A stretch of DNA of 13,237 bases from a virus (IMGVR_UViG_3300013383_000248), one strand, 5' to 3'; positions 1 to 13,140 are shown, numbered from the stretch's first letter. Numbers and translations: made by a program. Notes: a model not told the origin generated them from the sequence alone.

Positions 1-1892
1 GCATAGAAGAATGTAGTAGTCTTAATAGGTTCATCAAGTGATGGAGACCAAGAGGCAAACTCATAGTAATCAGAAGGTTCGCCGCCGACTTTCTTTTTAA
101 TATCTTCTTCATTGCCATTATAACTAGCATAATTACCGTAATAAACTCTAGTTTCATAAAGTAATTCACTATCATTGTAAAAATATACAGGATAACTTCT
201 CAGCTCTTCGGAGAATTCAGGCTCAACTGTTTTAGGAGCTGTAATTTTATCAAAGGTATCTTTCCAATCAGCATAAGTATAATCATACTATGCATCAGAT
301 GTCTTAGTAGGAATCTTGATAGTTTTATTAGCAACCGGATCAACGGCTGCGCCACCTTTGATAATCCACTATGTATTAACTACTTTATTATCGCCATCTA
401 CAAATTGAACTCTATAATATGTATCATAAAGGGCAACCATTGTAAGTGGTCCTTGAATATTGCTCTATAGATTACTTAATTCACGATAGATGTAATGAGT
501 ATCCTCAGTGCCTTCGTGAGTAGGTGTTTCAATTAATCCTGTTGCTATTGGATCTATAGCATTATCTCCTTGAGAAATTGCATATTTATAAAGTAAATCA
601 TTATTCCAGTTTACATAACGTAAGAAGAAGCGTGTTTTACCATTAACAATAACAATTAATTCCTTAAATGTTTCATTAAGTTCTTCAAGGAAATCATCAC
701 TAATTTCATTAATTTCAATATAACCAGTGACAACCGCGGTTTCAGTATTATTACCATTGGCATCTATACCGCCGCAAGATTTTAGTTTATTAAAAATAAT
801 CTTTAAAATATCTTCATTGGTGACAGACCAAGTAAGATTAACTAAACGCACACGATCAAGTTTAGGACTATTTAATAGAATATTTTCAATGGGAATGTTA
901 GGAGTATCATCAATCCATAAGGTATTGAGACTATCATAACTTTCCATAGAGAAATTCTAAATACCATGCTAATTACGAATTGTTAAGTTCGTAAATGTCC
1001 CAGGTAATTCTAGATTGGTTAAATGTCCGCCCATTGGGAATTGTAAACTCGTTAAAGAAGAACCTTTTGCTTTTACAGTTTCAAGGTTTACACAATTACT
1101 TAAATCAATTGCTTTAACTAGATTTATACAATTTTCAACATTTAAATAATCTAATAATCTATTATTACCAAGTTCTACACTTGTTAATTTATGATTAGTA
1201 TATCCATCTGCACTACTGCCAAGAATAACTTCTCTTAATTTAGTAGCCGAACTAAATTTAACAGTATCAGGTTTGAAATTACTTAAATCACCGAAGCTAG
1301 AAATTCTATCAGAAGAGCGAATAAAGATTTCAGTGTCAGATGCCGTATCAATTGGGCATTTTAATAAGTTAGGTGTATTGCGTTTACTACGCTGAGTGAC
1401 TGGATAAGAATCAGTAAAATCAACGCGGGGCCATAGATGTTGATAAGGAGTTACTGTGATATCTTCTGGAGAATATGCACGGAAACTTGCTGTCATCTTT
1501 TGGGCGTCGCCAGTGCGATACTTAGAATCGCGGTATTTAAATGTATTATATAACCACCATTCACGCTAAGTACGCTTATTACCTTGGCACATATCAAAGT
1601 ATTCTTCGCCATCAGTTAAATATACATCTAAGTATTTTAATTTAGCATCTTCATTCCAAAGAGCTTCAGGCCAGCATTTACTTTGATGTTCATTCATTTT
1701 TGTGTTAATAGCTTCATAAGAGAACTTACCTGCTATACGAAGTTTATCATACATAGCATAAATTTCAGATTTAAAAGCATCACGAATATTTAACCATAAT
1801 GTGCTTTGCTAGCCATTAAATACATCTTCATTATTTACTTTATCAGTATCTTCAAGGTCATAGTCGAAGACAAGAGCGCCTTCATTATTAAT
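1..1892 (-). CDS. Giant protein G, exon 2, partial: it continues beyond the window start. It holds the C-terminal part of the CotH-like domain, then a leucine-rich-repeat region, then further domains.
   Basis: The frame is the same as exon 1. It is open from 1892 down to position 1 through TAG codons at 1809, 1566, 969, 957, 465, 369 and 288. It joins track ORFs 1566..1754, 969..1496 and 465..947. There is no RBS or start near 1892. An LRR-like segment reads LTSVELGNNRLLDYLNVENCINLVKAIDLSNCVNLETVKAKGSSLTSLQF. Confidence 0.6.
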
Positions 1893-2939
1893 CGTTTAAT
1901 CCACTATTTCTAATGGAACAGACTATATCTTAACGGATTTTTTTAAATCCGCAAAACCCATTTCAAGCTATGTATCAATAATAGCTTTACTCTCCCGATC
2001 CGGAGATAGTCGTTACAGGTTTATAATTTAAATTATTTCAAATTTAGGAATTGCTTCAAATTTCCAACCATATAAGAAAGATCGTTTAGTAGGTATCCAA
2101 GTATCTCCAGCCTAATGTAAATTACTTCTTAAACATATATCTTTATTAAAATATAAATTAGGTTCTTTAGATGAAATAAATATCATTTCTTCGTTATTTG
2201 GAGATATTGCTTTTACAAAATAATGTGCTGTTTTTGCTTTATTTTTTCTAGCATTAGGACCATTATAATAGTTTTTCATAAAATCACCATGTCGTTTAGC
2301 TTGTTCTTGGCCTATAGGAGTTTTATAAAAATTATTCATCCATTCAGTATGCTATTCTATATGTGATTTATCAGCCCAATATTCTGTCATGCTCTAACTT
2401 AATTTTTGACGTCTTTCACCACTTCGTTCAGGATTGTTCCAATAAGCTTTAGATTGTTCTTGATGGCTATCTCCACCTGATGTTAGATTATATCCTTTGT
2501 CTAAATTATTAGAATCATAGAATTTTATATAATAACATTCTCGCTCATTTAATTTATTCTATAATTCTTGTTTATCATTAGTTTTTATTGTCTCTATGAT
2601 TTCCCAAATAAAATTATCTTTAGGATACTTTTCTAAAGTTTTATGAAAAACTGAATTGCCATAATGACGTTTTGTTGCAGTATAATGGCTAGAACGTCTA
2701 CGGTTTAAAGTATTAATAGTCTAACCTATATAAATTTTATTATTTTGTTTATTAGTTACTTTATATATTAATCCTATCATTTAACTTCCTCCTTTCTTAA
2801 AATTTTTTTTGTTGAAATAATTTAAATTAATTTCCCACGGTATTGCCTTCATCTTTACATGGTCAGGTTTCACCGTTAGCATATATTAAATATATACCCC
2901 GTTGATGAGACGGAAAAGGTTTAACAGGCATTATTACAT
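1893..2939 (-). mobile_element. Group I (IA-like) self-splicing intron, about 1047 nt, carrying a GIY-YIG homing endonuclease ORF in a peripheral loop
   Basis: The last exon bases GGU plus the first intron bases AU pair with an IGS-like AUGCC, giving a U-G wobble at the proposed 5' splice site after 2940. A P2-like hairpin CCGU...ACGG lies at about 2895-2912. P7 5' strand GACTAT at about 2003-2008 pairs with ATAGTC inside the conserved S-element AAGATATAGTC at about 1921-1931. A P9 hairpin CCATTA-GAAA-TAGTGG (GNRA tetraloop) at about 1901-1916 is followed by ACG, with candidate omega-G at 1893. There are further helices CTCCG-GAT-CGGAG and AGCTAT...ATAGCT. The flanking exons are in the same frame and together reconstitute one CotH-like domain. 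The intron length of 1047 nt, a multiple of 3, fits the frame continuity. Exact splice junctions are uncertain by a few nt. Confidence 0.6.
2028..2780 (-). CDS. GIY-YIG family homing endonuclease (I-TevI-like), 250 aa, encoded inside the intron
   Basis: ATG at 2778-2780 with SD AAGAAAGGAGGAAG. Translation reads MIGLIYKVTNKQNNKIYIG-Q-TINTLNRRRSSH...ELQNKLNERECYYIKFYDSNNLDKGYNLTSGGD. It matches the GIY-(10/11)-YIGQT, Arg/His and Glu/Asn GIY-YIG motifs. Five in-frame TAG codons, at 2721, 2559, 2394, 2352 and 2112. TAA at 2028-2030. It contains track ORF 2112..2339. Confidence 0.75.
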
Positions 2940-5900
2940 ACCATTAGCGGTATCAAAGTCATAAGGAAGTAAAAACCAATGAGTGCCGTCAAAGGTAGTG
3001 AAGAACATATTCTTTGCACGGCTATCAATCATTAAGAATACTTCAGTAAAGATATAATAGAAAATAAAATCATCTTTAATAAGATAATCATCAATTTCAT
3101 ATTTAAATTTATCAAGACGGTATTCTTCTGTATCATTATTATAAGTAGTTCCGCCATAAGTGACAGGAGCACTTAAGGCTTCACCGGTAGCCTAACGTCT
3201 ATCAGTAGAAACAATCCAATCAGCCACACGCTTAAATTGTGTATAATCACTATAAGGTTCATCTAAATCAGGATAACGGGCCTCGAAGTCAGCCATCCAA
3301 GCTGGAGTTACTGTACCTGTTTCGGCGTCTACGTATGTTTCTTCAAATTCACTCTTTTTAAATAACGTTCTATCAGAGGTATTATTTGAGAATTCCCAAC
3401 TTTCAAGGTGAGGATATAATTCACTATCAAAACCGAAAACATTTTCATTGCTCTTATCGTTATTCATATTATACATACCTTGGAATTTTACTTCGCCGGT
3501 TTCTGTATTTTCCCAGAAAACAACAATAGGAACGCCCTTAATGCCCGTTCTTATTTTATCATTTGTCTTTTGGGGCGGAGTTTTAAAAATATCACGAACA
3601 AGAGTATCATAATAATCTACAAGAACTGTATTATTTGCGTGTTCAGAAGAAGCATAGTCAGCTTTTAAGCATAATGTCGCGGCAAGTAAATCGCCGTCTT
3701 CAATTGGGAATCCTTTTGCTGTATCGCCATTAGAATAAGTAATACCTTTCTTAAAAGATACTTTAAAATTCTTAATAGGATAAACCGCTGAAGATGTACC
3801 TTGAACATTAAATTGACATCCAGTGGCTGTGAAATTACGTTCAGGATGTAAATTATCTACGAAATAAACAGATTTATTTTTCTTTTTATCGCCCTTATAC
3901 TATGGTAATTCTTCACATTGCATTACTAAGTAAGGAATAGACTTAGGTAATGAACCAATTGTAAGATTGCCGGATATATCATAAATGTGATTGCGCTCTT
4001 CAATTTCTAATCTTTCGCCATTAGTAGAACGGTCACAGATATAGTTATTTAACTATTCAGACATTGTAAGATTACGGTTATAGAAACGCATCTTATATAA
4101 GTCAAGTCCACAAGTATCAGAACCAATAGTAATAGGCTATGGAGTTGATTGTTTAAAATTATCATTTTCAGGATACTGTTCAACCGCACAAATAATGCCA
4201 TTTACATACATATAAATGAAACGATTTAAGGTTTGCGGCTCTACAACTACTGTAATTCTAACACGTTCATCTTCTTTAAACATCATAACAATTTCTTTGG
4301 ATTGCTCTGATTTAAAAATGATAGATTGGGATTTAATCACAAAACCGCGACCTTCATTAACACAAGATACAATGACTGAATCATAATCATTTACATTATG
4401 ACTACTTAATTCAAATTCCATTGTATAACCATTGGAGCGTTTGTCAGTTGCGAATGGATAGAATGGGATTACCATCTTATCTTTTGGTAAGAATCTTAAT
4501 ACTGTTTCACCAGCATCGCTCTCTACCCAGCCATCTGCGCCAGACCATACAAAACGTTCAAAAGAAGCATCTATATCATTATAGTTCCATTGTGCAGGAT
4601 TCTTTTCAGCATTACTACGTCCATTAGCTGTAAATTCTAATGCAAGATTGTCTTTAATGACTGATAAATTAAAAGTAGATTCGTGAATAGTCATATGGAA
4701 TTCTTTAATGGCGTCAGTGCCTGAATCACTACTTGCTGTAATACGGAAAATAATTTGTCCGGCGGGATAATCTTGGATAACCCAGTTTTGAGTAGTTTGA
4801 TTTACAATAATTTCTTTTGTAAAATAAATTGAATTATCAGGATTAATAATTTCTAATTTTACATTAGTAGTCTCAAGGAATGGATTATAAACCATATAAG
4901 GAATAGTAATGATTTCGCCTTGAGTTGATTCTGTCTACTGGAATGTAGAAAGAATATGTGTATCAACCATTTCGTCAGTCACATACATCATACCAAGAGT
5001 AAGAGTATTAGATTGAATAGACATATTATTAGTTTCCATTGTGGCATAGCAAGTAAATAAGTGGGCGCCGGCTGTCTACATAGGAATCTTATAACTATAA
5101 GCCAATTTATTAGTACTAGTTATTTCTTCGTTATATAATTCATTGCCATCCATTAAATAATGTAAAGTCTTAGTGCCTGAACCAATGATAACAAATGCAA
5201 AACTCGTATCACTAGTGTAAATATCCATTGATTTAAAATTAGTAGTTAATGATAAGTTAATAACACTAATTGAATAAGTCAATGTTTTTTGTTTGCCATC
5301 AGAATTTTCAACGACTAACTAAACATCATTGTCACCAAGAACTAAGTATTTAGTAATATCAAATGTTTGTAGCTTTTGTGCAACTGCAATAGTTGTTTTC
5401 TTTACATCATTGACAATGAGAGTGCCGATGCCAGGACCATCATTAAGACCATCTTGGTCTATAGACGAATAGCGGAATTTTAATTCTATTGTATCGCCTT
5501 CAAGTGTGGCAAAGATTCGGTCAATTGCAGATTGGAGAGTAATGTTATATCCTTCTTCAATAGTGCCGCCACCCGCTTGCCCTAATTTTTCATAGGCCTT
5601 GGTCAAAGTATTATAATTATATAGAGCCTAATCCGCGATGACCTTATACAGCACATCAGCTTCGCCGGTCTCAGGCAATTCATCAAATTTATTCACTACA
5701 AGAATATTACTCTTACCCTCAACGGCCTATTGAGTTTCATTAAGAATTTCATAAGCGGCTTTAGTGTCATTCCAGTAATAAAATTTTTGATTTTCTTTTA
5801 CTTTATATAATACATCTTCAACTTTTTCAGTAGGTAAATTGGCGATGGTATCTATAACTGCTATGTTCTCTTTACCTTCTACTATTGGAGTTTCACCAGT

Positions 5901-6536
5901 ATTTTCATTAATTGCCTAATAAGTTCTGGTCTATTGATTCCAAGTGTAAAGTAAATCAGTATCAGCTACCTTATAGAGCATAATTGGATTACCTTCATCC
6001 GGTAATTCTGCTTTAGTGCTAATTAATTTAATATTATTAATTTGAGATACTGTTTCTGCTTTTATTTTTTCATAATTATTATTTTGTGAGTTCCAGCTAT
6101 AAATTAACTAATCATCTAAGGATTTGTATAATTTATTATTTTCGCCGTTAGCTGGGAAGCCATCTTTTGTGTCAGCAACAATTATATTATCAATTTGAGG
6201 TTCTGGGTCTGGAATTTCTTGCTTTTCGTTGATAGCAATAAATTTATCATTATCCCAAAAATAGATTAATGATGTTGATTTAACTTTGTAGAAGAATGAA
6301 GCATCACCCTCTGGGGGTAATTTTTCTACTGTTTCAATACTTTTATTTTGAACAACTATATCATTTTCACTAGCAATATATTTCAATTCTTTCCAATTAG
6401 TTGTTCCATCACCAATTTTTAATTTATGAGTGTCTAGCTCATAACCGGCTTCTCCTATCGCTAACGTAGGATTAGCATCTAACCAATTGGTAGAAGTATC
6501 AGAACGAAGTAAAATTGTAGCATTCAATTTCCCCAT
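2940..6536 (-). CDS. Giant tail-fibre / structural protein G, exon 1 (about 1199 codons). It contains the anchor domain, 5 tandem YKV/LYxWN repeats, a ConA-like region and a CotH-like kinase-fold domain up to the P(Y/W)DxD motif.
   Basis: ATG at 6534-6536 with a strong SD (AAGGAGGTAAA). One minus-strand frame stays open across track ORFs 6108..6536, 5319..5606, 5076..5282, 4137..4895 and 3192..3476 and all gaps between them. It is interrupted only by 12 TAG codons, at 6108, 5931, 5916, 5727, 5628, 5319, 5076, 4935, 4137, 4053, 3900 and 3192. CotH-like motifs are present: NVQGTSSAVYPIKNFKVSFKKG (compare RGNSS..YPKKSYKIKF) and KNMFFTTFDGTHWFLLPYDFDTANG (compare the PWDxDxxFG region). The frame ends at TAA at 2934, which I interpret as lying within the intron, 5 nt after the 5' splice site. 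Confidence 0.65.
5585..6360 (-). repeat. Five tandem in-frame protein repeats of about 50 aa each in gene G, of the form ...LP.EG...(V/I)LYKV.....LY.W(N/D)....Y(E).(I/L)
   Basis: Translation shows FFYKVKSTSLIYFWDNDKF, KLYKSLDDQLIYSWNSQNNNYEKI, IMLYKVADTDLLYTWNQQTRTYQAI, DVLYKVKENQKFYYWNDTKAAYEIL and DVLYKVIADQAQYNYNTLTKAYEKL at roughly 150-165 nt spacing. One copy of the module also occurs after the anchor domain in X and in Y. Confidence 0.6.
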
Positions 6537-6570
6537 TATTTTACCTCCTTATATTTTAATCTCTAAATAC

Positions 6571-6610
6571 AATAAAAAAAAGGGTTATTCAGTTAACCTG
6601 AATAACCCTT
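6571..6610 (-). terminator. Rho-independent terminator downstream of gene W
   Basis: A perfect 13-bp stem AAGGGTTATTCAG / CTGAATAACCCTT (6580-6592 and 6598-6610) with a 5-nt loop. On the minus-strand transcript it is followed by a run of 8 U residues (plus-strand A-run 6574-6581). It starts 12 nt after the W stop codon. Confidence 0.7.
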
Positions 6611-6622
6611 TGGAATTAAAGA

Positions 6623-8599
6623 TTACATTACTGTATTGGCAGAACCACAATCAAAAATAACGTAAGCAGTTTGGTCTAAATCATCAATCTTGCCGGAAGC
6701 AGCAACTTTATGAAGCATTACTTCCGCACCCTTACTGATTGCACCATTGGTCTGCTTAACCTGAGTTAAAACACCAAATTTACCGTCAGTCTGGGTTTCA
6801 GTAGCAACTGCACCTTCACTAGTTAACTTAGTAATTGCGCTCGCAGCATCATCAGCACTCTTCTAAGCAGCAGCCGCAGCAGCAAAAGCACCATAAACAG
6901 TCTTATCATCGGCAGTATCTGCATCATCGCCCAAAACAGCAGCAGCAGCACCGGCGGCATCATAGGTACCAGCTTTAATGCTACCAGAGACAGACTTTAA
7001 TGTACCATTTTCCTGAACTACGGTAAGAGCTAGTTGACCATTACCTTCAGCAGCATCTTGAGAAACAGTACTAACAAGATTTACAACTTTATCGTTAATT
7101 TTCTTATCAACTGAGCCTGCAGTCTCAACAGTACCATTTAAAGTATCAATAGCGGCTTTATTGGCGTTAACTTTTTCTTCAAGAGCAGTTACATCAGCAG
7201 AAGCACCACTCTTAATGCTAGCTAAACGCTCCGTTAAGGTTTCTTTTTCGCCTTCTTCGCCGCCCTCTTTATCTAACTTGACTTGATCGCCAGAGATAGA
7301 GATTTTGCTACGAGTGGCAGTGACCATACCATTATTCTGGACAATAGTGGTAATGGTTTCATCAGCAGTACCTGTTTGAGCAGCAGCACTTAAAGATTTC
7401 TTAACAGCATCAGCAACGCCTTCATCACCGAACTGATCGAACTTGGTGCCATCAAAGATATACTCTAAAGTGCCAACGATGACAACATCACCAGTTTTAT
7501 AATCACTTACATCAGTAGGAAGAGCTTCTAACATACCTTTATAAGTTAAGGATTTAGAGAACTTTTCAACTACAGCATCGACATCTGCTTCTGTAGCAAT
7601 TTTATTGCTTTCAGAATTATAAGCAGTCTTAAACTTTAGATCACGTTTAGTAGCAGAAACAATACCATTAGCTTCGCTGATTTCACCTACGAAAGAAATG
7701 GTTTCACTATTGTCAGCAACACCAGCTTCATAACCAGTATAGTTTAATTTCTTAATTGCATTATCACGATCAGTAGCTTCTTGGGCAGCAGCAGCAGCAG
7801 CTTCTTCAGCTTTAGTCTGTGCAGCAGCGGCAGCTTTATTTGCACCGAAAACTGTACTAGCGCCAGCGGCATCAGTATCTTTACCAAGAACAGCAGCAGC
7901 AGCACCGGCGGCATCATAAGTGCCTTCTTTAATAGTAGCAGTGACAGATTTTAACGTACCATTTTCCTGAACGATGGTGACATCAAGGCCATCAGCATTG
8001 ACAGCATTTTCATCAGTGCGGTTAGAAATAGTAGCATTTAACTTTTTAATAGCCGCATCAATTTGACTAGCAATACTACCAGCACCGCCAGTTAATCCTT
8101 CAATTTCAGTCTCTAATGTAGCAATACGGCCAAAAGCATCAGTAACATCGATTAAAGAATCGGTAACATTCTGCCAATCTCCATCTAATTCTTTAGATTG
8201 AAGTTGATATTTACCAGGAATAACAGCATTTTCATCATCTTTAGCTTGAACGATTTTATATTGAGTATTGGTATCGTAGTCAGAATATTTTTCAATAGCT
8301 TCTTGTAAACCAGTGATTTCAGAAGCAGCATAAGAAGGCTTGTTAGCAGCTTTAGCCCAGCCATATATATCAGCAGCTAATCCACTTACAAAAGGAAGAA
8401 AACTATATTTACTAGCACCATCGCCAATTTTAAGGACTACATTAGGTAAATTCTGTAATTTACTAGTAGTGTTACCCTCTGGAATAGTAGCAATTGCCAT
8501 TTCGCCTTTCTTTAATACAGGATCAGCAGCAAGCCAATTATCATAACTATCATATTTTAATTGAATACGAGTTTGAAATACTTTATTAGTATCAGGCAT
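6623..8599 (-). CDS. Tail-fibre protein W, 658 aa. Anchor-like N-terminus (...VLKIGDGASKYSFLPF), poly-Ala-rich central region with two long internal direct repeats.
   Basis: ATG at 8597-8599 with SD AAAGGAGATAATAAATT. Track ORF 6863..8599 continues in frame through TAG at 6863-6865 for 80 more codons (KSADDAASAITKLTSEGAVATETQ...FDCGSANTVM). TAA at 6623-6625. An intrinsic terminator follows immediately. Confidence 0.8.
6866..7020 (-). repeat. Intragenic direct repeat in gene W, copy 2 (encodes LTVVQENGTLKSVSGSIKAGTYDAAGAAAAVLG...)
   Basis: About 85% nt identity with 7836..7990 over roughly 100-150 nt. The shared core is cagcagcagcagcaccggcggcatcata...ctttaatg/acgtaccattttcctgaac. Confidence 0.6.
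7836..7990 (-). repeat. Intragenic direct repeat in gene W, copy 1 (encodes VTIVQENGTLKSVTATIKEGTYDAAGAAAAVLG...)
   Basis: Paired with 6866..7020. Both copies are followed by Ala-rich tracts. Confidence 0.6.
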
Positions 8600-8627
8600 A
8601 ATTTATTATCTCCTTTTCAATCAATTA

Positions 8628-10304
8628 TTAATATGTAAAAGCTGCGGCGCCACCACAATTAAGTAGGACATCCTCAGTCTATACAAGTTTATTAACATTT
8701 AAGCTCTTAACCTCAAGAGCATTATTGGTATCAAGACCAATTTCAGCAGAGGTTTTAACAATACCAGCAACTTCACCAGTAGCAAATGGTAATTCAACTA
8801 CTTTATTAGTAATTGCTAAGTTTTCAGTCTAACCGGCTAACTTAATAGCTTCAATTATATTGACTTGAGCACCTTCGGCAATACCATCTAATTTGGTTTC
8901 GTCAGCAGCACTTAATAAGCCAGGAGCTGTATCACGCTTACCAGTAATCCAATCAGCAAGGCCAGTTACTTTTTCAGCAGCAACATTAGCTGAAATTTCT
9001 ACTGAGCCGTCCTCATTGATAACTAAGTTATCTAATTTAGCCTTATTGGTTGGGCTTAAGAGCGTCCAAGCTACTTGCTCGCCATTGACTTCGCTGGTAA
9101 CTTTATCAACTTTACCATCAACTTTAGTAGTTAATGCAGCAATATCATTAGTATTTTTAGTAACTTTACCAGTTAATTCAGTAACTGTAGAAGCATCAGC
9201 TTTTCCAGCAACAGTTTGAGTAAGAGTAGCTAAATCTGCTGTATGACCTTCAACAGTTGTAGTAAGAGCTGTTAAATCAGCTTGATTGGCTTTACCATTG
9301 ACAGCTTCAGTAAGAGCTGTAATATCTCCAGTATTTTTATCAACCTTGCCAGAGAGAGTTTCAACAACAGTAGCATCAGCTTTCTTACCAATTGCTGTAG
9401 TATTAGCAGCAATCTTAGTAGCAAGATCATCAGTTACTGTAGTTTTAGCATAACTCTCAAGAGTAGTATTAACATCAGCAGTTTTAGCATAATCAGTTAA
9501 ATCAACAGATGTATCACCTATTAATTCAATAGTATAGCTATCTTCTGCACCAAAGCGCATATACTCTTTATAGTTGTCTTTACCATCTTTAGAAGAAACC
9601 TTCTGCATATAAATAACATTATCAGATGCTGTAGATGGGTCAGCGATAAATGCAGCAAGTTCTTGCTCAGTGACAATCTGACGAGTTAAATGGCTAGCTC
9701 CGGCGACTGCGGCGTCAATAGCTAAATCAGCCTCATCCTTAGTATAAACATCTGCGGAATTTGCCTTTTTAGCAACTTCATCTGTTACAGTAGTAATTTT
9801 ACCATCAATATCATCTTTGGTATATACATCTTCGCTGTTGGCTTTTTTAGCAACTTCAGTTTGAAGATTTCCAACATTGGCTTCAAGAGTGGCAACCTTA
9901 GTGCTAAGCCCTTCAACAGTAGTAGTGTCAGGCTTTACCCAAGATAGCTTACCATCAGTGCCAACCGTTAATTGCGCACCAGCAGCTGCATCAGCAAATC
10001 CATAAAGACTTAATTTGCCATCAGCATCTTTAGTGAAAACATTTTCATTAATGACAATTTCTTCGCCAACCCCAGAAAGAGTTTTATCTGGCTGAATCTG
10101 ATAAATTTTTGCCTTACCATTTTCAACTACGACTACTGGATTACCATAGTAATATGCCGTATTAGTACTACCAGCAGGTTCGGCAGTAGCAGCAGCAGCA
10201 ACTGCGGCATCGTAGCTTTCAAAATAACTCTTAGGGTCAAGAGGGAACGCCGTTTGTCTATTAAGGCCAACAGCAAAATCAAGAACACCAAAATTCATAG
10301 ACAT
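8628..10304 (-). CDS. Fibre protein Z, 558 aa, with periodic Thr/Leu/Ala/Lys repeats typical of phage fibre shafts. Its N-terminus differs from the A/X/Y/W/G family.
   Basis: ATG at 10302-10304 with SD AGGAGGGGAAATAATT. Track ORF 8829..10304 continues through TAG codons at 8829 and 8679 to TAA at 8628-8630. The C-terminus reads ...NCGGAAAFTY. Confidence 0.75.
9075..9410 (-). repeat. Periodic fibre-shaft repeats in gene Z, about 11-residue units rich in T/L/A/K/V (...ITALTEAVNGKANQADLTALTTTVEGHTADLATLTQTVAGKADASTVTELTGKVTKNTNDIAALTTKVDGKVDK...)
   Basis: Seen in translation. It appears at nucleotide level as recurring ttaccag / ttagc(a/t)gcaat motifs. A second short pair EVAKKANS-DVYTKD lies at about 9763-9783 and 9841-9861. 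Confidence 0.5.
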
Positions 10305-10322
10305 AATTATTTCCCCTCCTTA

Positions 10323-11567
10323 TTAAATTTTTACAATATAACTATTTGCAGCTTCTATAGGAGCAGCAAATTCAGTTGTAAAGACTTTATAACTAATGCC
10401 AGCATCATTTTCAGCGCCAGCTACAGTAATAGTTTCTTTCCTAAATGCAGAAACAATTTCAGCATTTAAGCCATTGACATCTTTTACGGAAGTAATATCA
10501 CGTAAAGTAGCAGGATAAGCAAATACTACTCTGATTGCACCGACAGGAAGAGCAATAGTAACAGAATCGCCAGCTTTTAATGCCTTACCTGTTTTATTAA
10601 GAGCACGAATTGTAGGACTATCAAGACTATCTTTATTAGCAGTAGTGCCATAGAAAGTATTACGATAGCAGCTAATTGTGCCACTTGTCTTACTTACCTT
10701 ACCAGCCTTAATTTGACCGGCGGCATAAGCATTACCTTTATTAGTGACAGGAACTGCTGCGTCGTCATAACTGGCTTCAGCATTAATTGTATAACTATCG
10801 CTATCAGCAAGGACAATAGCTGTAAAGGTATCCTTAGCAGTTGTTTTATTCTGAACTGAAGTATTACCTTTTCTTAAATTTACATTCCAACTCTTGGCGG
10901 TTAAACCAGTAGCAGGGCCATAAGAATAAGAACCAGCACTCATTTTTGCATCATAACTTGGAGTGACAGATGTACCAACTTCAAAACTACCTGTAGTAAC
11001 TTGAGTAAAAGAAACTGCGGGTTGAGTAACAGTAGGATTTTGTTCCTTAACAAAAATCTATTCCCAAGTATCAGTTAAATTCTTGCCAGTAGAAGGAATA
11101 TGAGCAGAGCCATTTTCAAGGGTAATATAACCAATTTCCTTAGTAGTGAATAAGTCCTTATCAAAGTAAACATTATTCGCATTGTAATTGCCATTCATAG
11201 CTTGCCATTTGGAATCATTGTAAACATATGCGGTATAGGTTATTGCTTCACCGATTGCGGATTTAACAATAGCCATATCGCCTTCAAATAGAGCATTTTC
11301 ACCGACTACACGAGTGATCGCCGCGATATCATCTTCACCTTCAGCTAAGTCTGCTTGATAGACTTGAGCTTGATGAACATCAGATTCGCCGCCAAAATAA
11401 TCAAGTTGTGCCCAAGTTTTTTGGCCGTCGCCTAATTTCATTTTGGTTTCACCGGCGTCAGTAAATTCGACACCCATTTCGCCTTTCATAAGGACTACAT
11501 CAGAATTAGCTTCCCAATTAGCTGTTGAGTCATTACGTAAAGCAATACGAGTTTTAATCTAAGCCAT
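10323..11567 (-). CDS. Tail-fibre paralog Y, 414 aa. Anchor domain plus a distinct C-terminal, putatively receptor-binding, domain.
   Basis: ATG at 11565-11567 with SD GGAGGTAACGCAT. It overlaps the end of gene X by 14 nt in a different frame. N-terminus reads MA-Q-IKTRIALRNDSTANWEANSDVVLMKGEMGVEFTDAGETKMKLGDGQKTWAQLDY. In-frame TAG codons at 11559 and 11058 join track ORFs 11058..11489 and 10323..10943. TAA at 10323-10325. Confidence 0.7.
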
Positions 11568-11928
11568 ATGCGTTACCTCCATTTATAATATCTATATCTT
11601 CAATAGGAATACCTCCGCCACCGCTACCAGCCATAAGAGACTCATAGCCATTTGTTTCAGTATTCCATTGGTATAGTTTCGCAGTAGAAGAAACTTTATA
11701 AATAACATTTGCCTTACCTATACTTGGTAATTCAGCAAATACTCTAGCATTAACAACATTCTCGTTGTTCTAGTCTTGGTACGGTAAATCATTCCAAGCG
11801 GTTTTACCATCGCCAATTTTTAAACGCAAGGTATCAATTTCAAAACCAGGTTCACCATCTAAAAGTAGGAGGTTTTTGGTTCGCCAAGTTGTTGATTTAC
11901 CACGTTTAAATTTAATTATATCAGCCAT
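11554..11928 (-). CDS. Short tail-fibre paralog X, 124 aa. It consists of the anchor domain and one YKV/LYQWN repeat, then a GSGGGG tail.
   Basis: ATG at 11926-11928 with SD AAGGAGGAAAAATAAT embedded in the 3' end of gene A. Protein begins MADIIKFKRGKSTTWRTKNLLLLDGEPGFEIDTLRLKIGDGKTAWNDLPYQD. One in-frame TAG at 11770-11772. TAA at 11554-11556. It is absent from the ORF track because the TAG splits it into pieces under 60 aa. Confidence 0.6.
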
Positions 11929-11929
11929 A

Positions 11930-13009
11930 TTATTTTTCCTCCTTCTTTACTACATAGAAGCCATTTTCTAAGACCTATGTGTATCCAGAAGCAAGATAAG
12001 CCGGATTTAACATACGATTAAAGCGTCCGCCGCTAATTTCAATATGCGGTTCACCTTCAATCTTAAAATTACTATCCTATTGTGCGGTAATAAATGTGCC
12101 GCCACTAATATAAGTATTTTGGACATTTAAATCTTCATTTAGTTTACGAATATATAAATTATATTCGCCTTGATTTTGTTTACTATTTTCAAAATAACCA
12201 TCAGTAATAGTCATTGATTTACCAGTGGCAAGAATAATATTGTAGAATGTGCCGCCATTAATATTTAAAACAGCATTGTCATCATTCTTTACGGCATATA
12301 AACCACCTGCAAATGTACCATCATTAATAGTTAATTCAGGCGATTCGGCATTTTGACCTTGGACATAACCATTTGTAGCATCACCGGCTTTATAATTATA
12401 ATAACCATTTTCAATCATGCTAGAAAATTCGCCGCCACTCATAAATATACCGCCATTAATTGTCATAGTGCCATGATTAACTATAGTGTAAAATCCATTA
12501 CCAGATACATCTATTGTGCGCTACAACTTACCATTATTAATAATCGTATTACCATTATTAAAAACTGCAGGCTTACCATTTTTATTACATTCAATAGTAC
12601 CTTGACCTTTAATAGTTAAATCGCCGCCTACTTTGATGTCTATTGGAGTTGTTTCATTATTGATAATATTATTACCATTTAATTCAACAGTTAATTTTTT
12701 ATCAATAGAAACACTATTATCAAAGTCTTTATTAAGACGAATGGTGCTTCCTGCTGGAGCCTTCATAAATGCTACGTCAATAGATTGATAAGGCACACCA
12801 TCTACGACCGCGGGATTGCTAGTGTAGTCTTGGACGTTAACGACTTTAGTGCCACCGATATAAGGTAGTTCGTTCCAAGCTGTTGAACCATCACCAACTT
12901 TAATCTAATGAGTATTAAGTTCTACGCCAATTTCACCAGCTGCAAGAATAATATTTTTTTTAGACCAACTAGATGATTTGCCGCGTCTTAATTGAATAGT
13001 TTCAGCCAT
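11930..13009 (-). CDS. Tail fibre / tailspike paralog A, 359 aa. It has the HylP-like N-terminal anchor domain followed by a beta-helix-like C-terminal region with repeated NGGTF / INNG motifs.
   Basis: ATG at 13007-13009 with SD GAAAGGAGAACACAAG upstream. N-terminus reads MAETIQLRRGKSSSWSKKNIILAAGEIGVELNTH-Q-IKVGDGSTAWNELPY. The same frame stays open through TAG codons at 12905, 12521, 12077 and 11975, joining track ORFs 12521..12796 and 12077..12466. It ends with TAA at 11930-11932. Confidence 0.75.
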
Positions 13010-13026
13010 CTTGTGTTCTCCTTTCT

Positions 13027-13140
13027 TTAATCATCATCTATAGAGCCGCCGTCCCAGCCGCCAGTTGATTTAGAAGTATCTTCTTTATCAATATCGCCGC
13101 CATCTTTGCCGCCCTTATATGAAAGAATAAACATCTTCAT
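13027..13140 (-). CDS. Small Gly/Asp-rich hypothetical protein, 37 aa (MKMFILSYKGGKDGGDIDKEDTSKSTGGWDGGSIDDD)
   Basis: ATG at 13138-13140 is preceded by the SD sequence AAAGGAGAAGG at 7 nt spacing. TAA at 13027-13029. It sits directly upstream of tail-fibre gene A. It falls below the ORF-track length cutoff, so it is my own call. Confidence 0.4.
   Translation of the reverse strand: MKMFILSYKGGKDGGDIDKEDTSKSTGGWDGGSIDDD

Follow-up and report, generated by a model that had tools for sequence, protein, structure and literature searches.

The td intron of phage T4, a group I intron of class IA2 that encodes the endonuclease I-TevI, interrupts a phage protein gene within a conserved motif. A similar arrangement is reported here for gene G, on the minus strand of a 13,237-nt viral sequence (IMGVR_UViG_3300013383_000248; the whole stretch is hereafter called the window). 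Gene G is very probably one fibre gene with exons at 6536-2940 and 1892-1, split by a mobile group I intron at 2939-1893. The host genes are of different kinds: a virion fibre gene in the window and a nucleotide-metabolism gene in T4. The two introns nevertheless share the P7 strands GACUA and UAGUC, the junction J8/7 with AAGAUAUAGUC, the layout of P7.1 and P7.2 between P7 and the 3' strand of P3, P8 and J8/7, and an internal guide sequence (IGS) of the form ...GCCUG.... In both, a GIY-YIG open reading frame (ORF) with its own ribosome-binding site is looped out after P6. In contrast to the td order P1-P2-P3-P4, P3 in the window follows directly after P1, and two hairpins resembling P3.1 and P3.2 precede P4; an extended P9.1/P9.2 is absent. 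The window ORF and exons also use TAG as sense, and nucleotide similarity to td is too low for BLAST.

A recoded group I intron endonuclease has previously been described in 'Agate' phages, which are large and alternatively coded, and late expression was proposed for it (Borges et al., bioRxiv 10.1101/2021.08.26.457843). In Agate as in the window, the homing endonuclease is encoded within an intron and has reassigned stop codons in its reading frame. However, in Agate TGA stands for Trp and the intron lies in an early gene, whereas in the window TAG stands for Gln and the interrupted gene is a structural one, presumably late, that contains recoded stops as well.

The interrupted domain has its closest described counterpart in Bacillus CotH (5JD9/5JDA, PF08757), which has the same atypical kinase fold as the model of a homologue of the window protein (P0001). 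Identity between the two domains is only about 10-11%, and the window domain, at about 490 aa with large insertions, is longer than the approximately 360 aa of CotH. Whereas Bacillus CotH is a free spore-coat protein, the domain in the window is embedded in a phage fibre of 2,066 aa. In the latter, a D....N element is followed 17-19 residues on by an invariant D-x-D, comparable to the spacing of D228 and D251, the catalytic residues of B. subtilis CotH (PMC7821199). CotH-kinase domains in phage genomes have been called 'occasionally observed' and 'currently unstudied' (PMC8008677). The gut-phage proteins of that report share the CotH-family kinase domain with the window protein; here, though, an intron interrupts it, and it is combined with Mtd_N, repeats, a leucine-rich repeat (LRR)-like solenoid and DUF6273. 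With Mtd of Bordetella phage BPP-1 (PF18454), only the anchor module of approximately 40 N-terminal aa is shared, above the family cutoff; no C-type-lectin variable domain or diversity-generating retroelement was seen in the window.

Gene model, genetic code and splice junction

Every long ORF of the window is on the minus strand. Gene G starts at the ATG at 6536, with an AAGGAGG Shine-Dalgarno sequence upstream and a preceding TAA at 6551. From there down to 2936, the only stop-type codons in frame are 12 TAGs; seven TAAs follow (at 2936, 2933, 2888, 2783, 2030, 2015 and 1898), and thereafter TAGs alone occur to position 1. Read with genetic code 15, positions 1-6548 thus hold three ORFs in one common frame: 2934-6548 (1,205 codons), 2028-2780 (251) and 1-1895 (631), the last of which is open past the window edge.

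Judged from the sequence, TAG is a sense codon for Gln in the window genes. Under code 15, all eight ORFs terminate in TAA and are tightly packed, whereas 10/11 standard-code ORFs terminate in TAG. Across all window genes (4,192 codons), 34 in-frame TAGs stand against 18 CAGs, in-frame TGA and TAA are absent, and TGA was not seen as a terminator. Where TAG falls at conserved alignment sites, the relatives carry Gln in 90/94, 95/97, 84/91 and 48/49 cases. The use of TAG at Gln positions of relatives, together with its absence as a terminator, corresponds to genetic code 15. In-frame TAGs number 12 in exon 1, seven in the window part of exon 2 and 23 in the full gene.

A sequence-only reading of the window had taken gene G for a continuous ORF exceeding 1,800 codons, from 6536 to 1, allowing that a genuine TAA in the frame would break it into several separate genes. 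The seven in-frame TAAs disprove the continuous ORF, but the resulting pieces are very probably two exons rather than several genes. A single, very large multidomain fibre protein is retained, now as the product of splicing, although the unbroken frame from which it had been deduced is wrong; the middle ORF, a GIY-YIG endonuclease within a group I intron, had been overlooked. The expectation that the gene extends beyond the window was correct. An ENA contig of 194,445 nt (L001), 99.914% identical over window positions 1-6977 (six substitutions over 6,977 nt), supplies the C-terminus with 237 additional aa. Exon 2 is open for 867 codons in this contig, and the spliced protein amounts to 2,066 aa.

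The position of the junction comes from relatives that lack the insertion. A query in which ...DTANG was joined to INNEG... matched 1,249 relatives. Among those examined, 17 uninterrupted homologues (49-71% identity) carry PYD[FMY]DTAxG[IT]NNEG without a gap at the junction, and 74 further intron-less loci from IMG/VR and JGI are collinear across it at the nucleotide level. In addition, phrog_24896 matches aa 334-1288 as a single stretch that spans the junction. Because of these collinear homologues and the group I rules of a U before the 5' splice site and a terminal G, the intron was placed at 2939-1893, with splicing between U2940 and A1892. After splicing, the exons would read ...GCUAAUGGU joined to AUUAAUAAUGAAGG..., with codons GGU and AUU at the junction and the protein sequence ...PYDFDTANG-INNEGAL.... 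The intron begins with AUG UAA UAA, placing two in-frame stops directly past the 5' splice site, so that ribosomes on an unspliced mRNA would read a single intron codon and then stop; its 3' end is the omega-G at 1893. Other origins of the interruption were discarded: an intein is ruled out by the stops in the inserted stretch, readthrough of TAA by the fact that TAA terminates all genes, and an assembly artefact by the presence of the same site in four independent assemblies.

Alleles at this site form a clean natural homing series of intron-less, ORF-less and ORF-bearing states. The same 1,047-nt intron as in the window is present in L001, and a 1,048-nt intron is found in L015 and L016, the latter from a 185.5-kb IMG/VR contig. 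Introns without an ORF measure 264 nt in L003 (ENA) and 241 nt in L004 (from a 191-kb contig) and L005. No intron is present in L002 and about 74 other loci from JGI and IMG/VR. Together with the location of an endonuclease ORF in the P6a loop, the coexistence of these alleles at one site marks the intron as a mobile one.

Ribozyme core, endonuclease and intron family

The intron sequences flanking the ORF carry the group I signature ...CGACUA...UAAGAUAUAGUC..., and their helices (Table 1) were examined in an alignment of 13 intron family members (A3). RNAalifold returned 53 pairs for this alignment, 30 of them with compensatory changes. For the full structure including the P3 pseudoknot, 92.9% of cells were paired, compared with 37-45% in slid controls, and 39/65 pairs were altered on both sides (12-18 in the controls). 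The covariation score reached 0.477 versus 0.06-0.09, and none of 500 shuffles attained the observed values. Covariation thus backs the core helices P3-P9 with the P3/P7 pseudoknot, as belongs to a group I intron. In 49 loci, which between them show 25 distinct pairs of P3 strands, each change in the central triplet of one strand is matched exactly in the other (AAA/UUU, CAC/GUG, GCC/GGC, UUC/GAA and others).

At the splice sites, P1 is formed by exon GGU with guide GCC. The U2940.G pair at the cleavage site is invariant in 13/13 members, all of which terminate in G, and the neighbouring pair covaries (GC:10, CG:1, UA:1). An alternative exon pairing with GUUAA, suggested by the Rfam alignment of L003, was dropped; it is GGU:GCC that covaries. 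P10 pairs exon-2 AUUA with intron UAAU over 4 consecutive bp in the window, extends over 3-6 consecutive bp in 12/14 sequences, and covaries in L004. The P6a loop encloses the Shine-Dalgarno sequence and the endonuclease ORF, the stop codon of which lies inside the P6a 3' strand, and L016 has a compensated version of the 15-bp P6a stem. A canonical P3 just upstream of P4 was rejected, as the bases in question belong to a local hairpin that covaries. The placement of P3 before two hairpins could have been taken for a new topology; since the optional elements known from group I introns include P3.1 (PMC3873408), it is treated as a variant architecture and not as a new class.

The ORF within the intron begins MIGLIYKVTNKQNNKIYIGQ... 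and matches the GIY-YIG family (Pfam PF01541, 30.5 bits versus a cutoff of 22.6) as well as phrog_314, 'homing endonuclease' (E 6e-25, aa 1-245). Alignment with the catalytic domain of I-TevI (1MK0/1LN0) is collinear though weak (E 0.4 for 1MK0), and the elements IY..., YIG/YVG, R, E and GYN, which hold the catalytic Tyr, Tyr, Arg, Glu and Asn, line up. From these similarities, the product is a GIY-YIG homing endonuclease with predicted cleavage activity. The ORF is intact and, over its full length, 65% identical to its counterpart in L016.

For one fibre gene split by a mobile intron, the following course of events is proposed. The pre-mRNA would fold into a ribozyme core of P1, P3-P9, P7.1/P7.2 and the two hairpins between P3 and P4. 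Guanosine-initiated self-splicing, which this covariation-backed core leads one to expect, would then join GGU to AUU and restore the CotH-type kinase domain. The endonuclease would presumably cut intron-less alleles of the conserved motif in co-infecting relatives and thereby drive homing of the intron. Because both the fibre gene and the endonuclease ORF contain in-frame TAG read as Gln, and so alike need TAG suppression for translation, both proteins would be produced only once suppression by the phage is active, pointing to late expression.

The intron is not confined to this gene. A pattern search for P7/P7.1 found the same core motif in 65 IMG/VR viral contigs (L086-L150; 4-331 kb), in other exon contexts. 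Around 20 of the family copies are ORF-less and around 35 carry an insert of 0.8-1.2 kb between P4 and P7; GIY-YIG proteins are encoded by 32/36 ORF-bearing members. Over the N-terminal approximately 105 aa, these proteins show 30-48% identity with the enzyme of the window, whereas the C-terminal part is divergent except in the same-site intron, which fits a conserved nuclease domain combined with a target-specific DNA-binding domain. When the entire window was compared with INPHARED phages by megablast, no match was obtained, and a distant blastn search with an ORF-less intron retrieved three Enterococcus phages only (73-74% identity, in the 3' half). In a separate case, the first approximately 75 nt of L109 (IMG/VR 3300045988_151866, positions ~3700-3800), which would hold P1, the P3 5' strand and the first hairpin, are swapped for unrelated sequence, while the remainder is identical to L092/L108/L114; L109 is probably a truncated or recombined intron copy.

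Each of these components is of a known kind. What the locus adds is a corrected gene model, a homing cycle represented by several states of a single site, and a family of introns that standard annotation overlooks. Gene callers split the fibre even with code 15, and the intron escapes Rfam when the default threshold is used. With the same core motif in at least 65 IMG/VR phage contigs, the same mis-annotation is probably common in large phage genomes. A more far-reaching proposal is that the intron represents a large, hitherto unrecognised IA-type phage branch, which would be a systematic but hidden reason why structural genes look 'fragmented' in large phages with recoded stop codons. Its target here would be the active-site motif of a CotH-type kinase that is functional and carried on the virion, a class of enzyme not yet studied in phage fibres. 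Introns of such a branch would lack P2, have P3 and P4 separated by two hairpins and carry a GIY-YIG ORF in P6a, and their sub-threshold Rfam scores may have left them unannotated. This proposal is rather doubtful.

Evidence for and against an intron-split gene

Gene callers applied to L001 give three separate products of 1,200, 250 and 821 aa, as would three independent genes, in which a free-standing GIY-YIG gene lies between, or fractures, two fibre-module genes. The two halves would then be translated separately and perhaps assemble non-covalently, with no splicing, and genes fractured by homing endonucleases have been described (PMC2677866). Such an organisation is nonetheless very unlikely in the window, given that the ORF flanks form a covariation-backed group I core and that ORF-less versions of 241-264 nt occur at the same site. 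Moreover, no start signal was found for exon 2, the first in-frame ATG of which (at 1754) lies 46 codons in and has no Shine-Dalgarno sequence, whereas most neighbour genes have AAGGAGG. Separate translation would also cut the kinase domain four residues past the invariant Y-D-x-D. The single uninterrupted code-15 ORF of the sequence-only reading has in its favour the common frame of the three ORFs and the reading of TAG, but almost no credibility is left to it: TAA, which occurs in that frame seven times, terminates all eight ORFs, the translations of the 'gap' segments show no homology, and the 1,047 nt are missing from uninterrupted relatives.

Several observations weigh against a fibre gene split by a functional intron, and the first two of them would equally suit a decayed relic that no longer splices, with gene G reduced to a pseudogene or to a shortened fibre of 1,200 aa. 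The Rfam family RF00028 (Intron_gpI) matches the window with E 4.3e-8 and 39.0 bits, under the gathering score of 50, and the ORF-less L003 intron, across the full-length model, with E 4.2e-8 and 37.2 bits, likewise below it; at the gathering threshold, neither the window nor L002-L004 gave a match, the intron surfacing in E-value mode only. The exon part of P1 in the window comprises 3 bp only. Further, the spliced window protein does not match Pfam CotH (PF08757, gathering 23.8 bits) at E<=10, and the CotH fold was recognised on the 71%-identical homologue P0001, not on the window sequence itself. ARAGORN detected no tRNA genes in the window, hence no suppressor tRNA within it. In favour of decay, the 5' part is missing from one intron of the family, L109. 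The window copy, however, has every core helix intact, and its lone core substitution relative to L001 (window 2841, L001 4137), in the P4 3' strand, exchanges U-A in the window for U.G in L001 and keeps the helix. Exon 2 is open over its entire length in L001, its modelled segment has about 95% protein identity to the L004 allele (P0006), and the endonuclease ORF is intact and conserved in L016. A relic is thus very unlikely indeed, and one fibre gene interrupted by a mobile group I intron remains by far the preferred interpretation.

Table 1. Positions of gene G, its intron and the encoded protein regions within the window
Feature	Position	Strand	Remarks
Exon 1	2940..6536	minus	1,199 codons, 12 TAG read as Gln; last codon GGU 2940-2942
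Group I intron	1893..2939	minus	1,047 nt; gap-free junction in homologues, Rfam RF00028, covariation
Exon 2	1..1892	minus	630 codons in window, 7 TAG; incomplete, 237 further codons in L001
5' ribozyme part	2814..2939	minus	helices from alignment and covariation
IGS GCC	2927-2929	minus
P3 5' strand	2917-2922	minus
Two hairpins between P3 and P4	2899-2913; 2878-2898	minus
P4/P5	2837-2876	minus
P6	5' strand 2834-2836; 3' strand 2017-2019	minus
P6a	5' strand 2814-2828; 3' strand 2025-2039	minus	perfect 15-bp stem in window
GIY-YIG homing-endonuclease ORF	2028..2780	minus	250 aa, 5 in-frame TAG; AAGGAGG at 2788-2794
3' ribozyme part	1893..2039	minus
P7 5' strand GACUA	2007-2011	minus
P7.1; P7.2	1991-2006; 1965-1987	minus
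P3 3' strand	1954-1959	minus
P8	1933-1952	minus
J8/7 and P7 3' strand UAAGAUAUAGUC	1921-1932	minus
P9 with GAAA loop	1901-1916	minus
Mtd_N-type anchor, aa 10-46	6399..6509	minus	Pfam PF18454, E 1.6e-10, 41 bits versus cutoff 26.3
Five diverged ~52-aa repeats, aa ~73-322	5571..6320	minus	motif [LF]P..G...YK[VS]......Y.W[ND]
CotH-like domain, exon-1 part, aa ~856-1199	2940..3971	minus	alignment A1, PF08757 in relatives, homologue model
D-S-R-A-K-N, aa 1171-1176, candidate catalytic loop	3009..3026	minus	A1 invariant D316, R318, A319, K320, N321
Y-D-F-D, aa 1192-1195, candidate metal-binding DFG (Asp-Phe-Gly) equivalent	2952..2963	minus	A1 invariant Y337, D338, D340
CotH-like domain, exon-2 part, aa 1200-~1345	1455..1892	minus	alignment A1, PF08757, homologue model
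LRR-like beta-solenoid, aa ~1409-1527	909..1265	minus	AlphaFold2 (AF2) model of homologue P0006

The fibre protein and its genomic surroundings

The spliced protein would comprise, in order, Mtd_N, five repeats, a beta-rich region, the CotH-like kinase domain, the LRR-like solenoid, C-terminal repeats and DUF6273. For the CotH-like domain, an alignment of 17 relatives (A1) was used. PF08757 matches 12/17 of them at E<=1 (best E 7.5e-11), and in P0001 it scores exactly the cutoff of 23.8 bits, over aa 312-466, a range that spans the junction (P0001 residue ~370). The AF2 model of P0001 (predicted local distance difference test, pLDDT, 82; predicted template modelling score, pTM, 0.84) was matched by Foldseek to B. 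cereus CotH 5JDA/5JD9 with E 2.9e-9, probability 1.0 and template modelling (TM) scores of 0.51 (query) and 0.67 (target); HipA and PI3K, the next fold matches, followed at E>0.2.

The motifs D-x-R-A-K-N and Y-D-x-D are invariant in A1, and the intron lies four codons past the latter (A1 junction G344/I345). The assignment of the catalytic loop follows by analogy from the D..N spacing and D228/D251 of B. subtilis CotH; a search of PDB sequences with the A1 profile gave nothing at E<=10, so the residue mapping onto CotH is an inferred one. With its invariant motifs, the domain is probably an active enzyme. CotH-domain relatives were found at more than 576 IMG/VR loci and also in Bacteroides (p00, others), Klebsiella and Bacillus phage records, where those listed carry the annotation hypothetical. 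Kinase domains of the CotH type thus occur widely among fibre-like proteins of phages and are conserved enough to serve as a homing target, while their function is unstudied.

Measured against these results, the domain architecture given by the sequence-only reading holds in part. Its N-terminal anchor is confirmed by the Pfam Mtd_N match above cutoff, and aa 5-70 are matched by PHROG families of tail fibres and tail spikes. Its fivefold repeat is present at the protein level: a regular-expression listing places the repeat starts at aa 73, 127, 178, 234 and 287, and phrog_14839 matches aa 134-237 within the repeats; Tandem Repeats Finder detected no DNA-level tandem repeat under the five protein repeats. 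The CotH-like domain is upheld through the homologue fold and the relatives' Pfam matches, with the window sequence itself missing PF08757. As candidates for the conserved CotH active-site residues that were to be checked for that reading, the two invariant motifs came up, with compatible spacing; no residue-level alignment to CotH was obtained. Its kinase- or adhesin-like role for the fibre is speculative, the invariant motifs being compatible with an active kinase.

The predicted LRRs fare less well. In an AF2 model of the P0006 segment, which is 95% identical to the window (pLDDT 88.7), short strands occur at regular spacing, and nearly all of the top ~36 PDB matches in Foldseek were LRR proteins, albeit weak ones (E 0.014-1, TM 0.2-0.3). 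In relatives, LRR_4 and LRR_EndoS match the equivalent region below threshold, and strong LRR_5 matches lie further C-terminal. Pfam searches of the separate ORFs and of the spliced window protein, on the other hand, returned no LRR, LamG or CotH match even at E<=10, and phmmer and profile searches of the LRR region against the PDB gave nothing meaningful. An LRR-like nature of aa ~1409-1527 is thus weakly supported by the homologue model. The ConA-like region of the earlier architecture finds no backing: there was no Pfam match for ConA-like or LamG domains, no PDB sequence or profile match, and no Pfam tag on any of the 17 relatives from a second protein-database search with this region.

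Upstream of gene G, positions 6623-13030 of the minus strand hold five more genes, four of which (starts near 8599, 11567, 11928 and 13009) open with an Mtd_N-like module of about 45 aa. Since four of these five genes share this module with gene G, the region is a fibre-gene cluster of at least five genes with one anchor type. One copy of the LP..G...YKV......Y.WN repeat is found in the 124-aa gene at 11557-11928. The 659-aa gene (6626-8599) is Ala-rich and contains an internally duplicated module of about 55 aa (...VQENGTLKSV...GTYDAAGAAAAVLG...AAAAAQ...), and no PHROG match was obtained for it.

Strong Shine-Dalgarno sequences of the AAGGAGG type precede five genes, among them gene G and the endonuclease ORF, at a distance of 6-9 nt (6537-6566, 2781-2810, 10305-10334, 11929-11958 and 13010-13039), which hints at a host that uses Shine-Dalgarno signals. 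At the gene with an ORF-based start at 11582, no Shine-Dalgarno sequence is present at that position and GGAGG precedes the second ATG (11567), which is likely the true start. Gene G together with its intron has a GC content of 0.28-0.34, with the minimum at 2001-3000, and the upstream fibre genes have one of 0.35-0.41.

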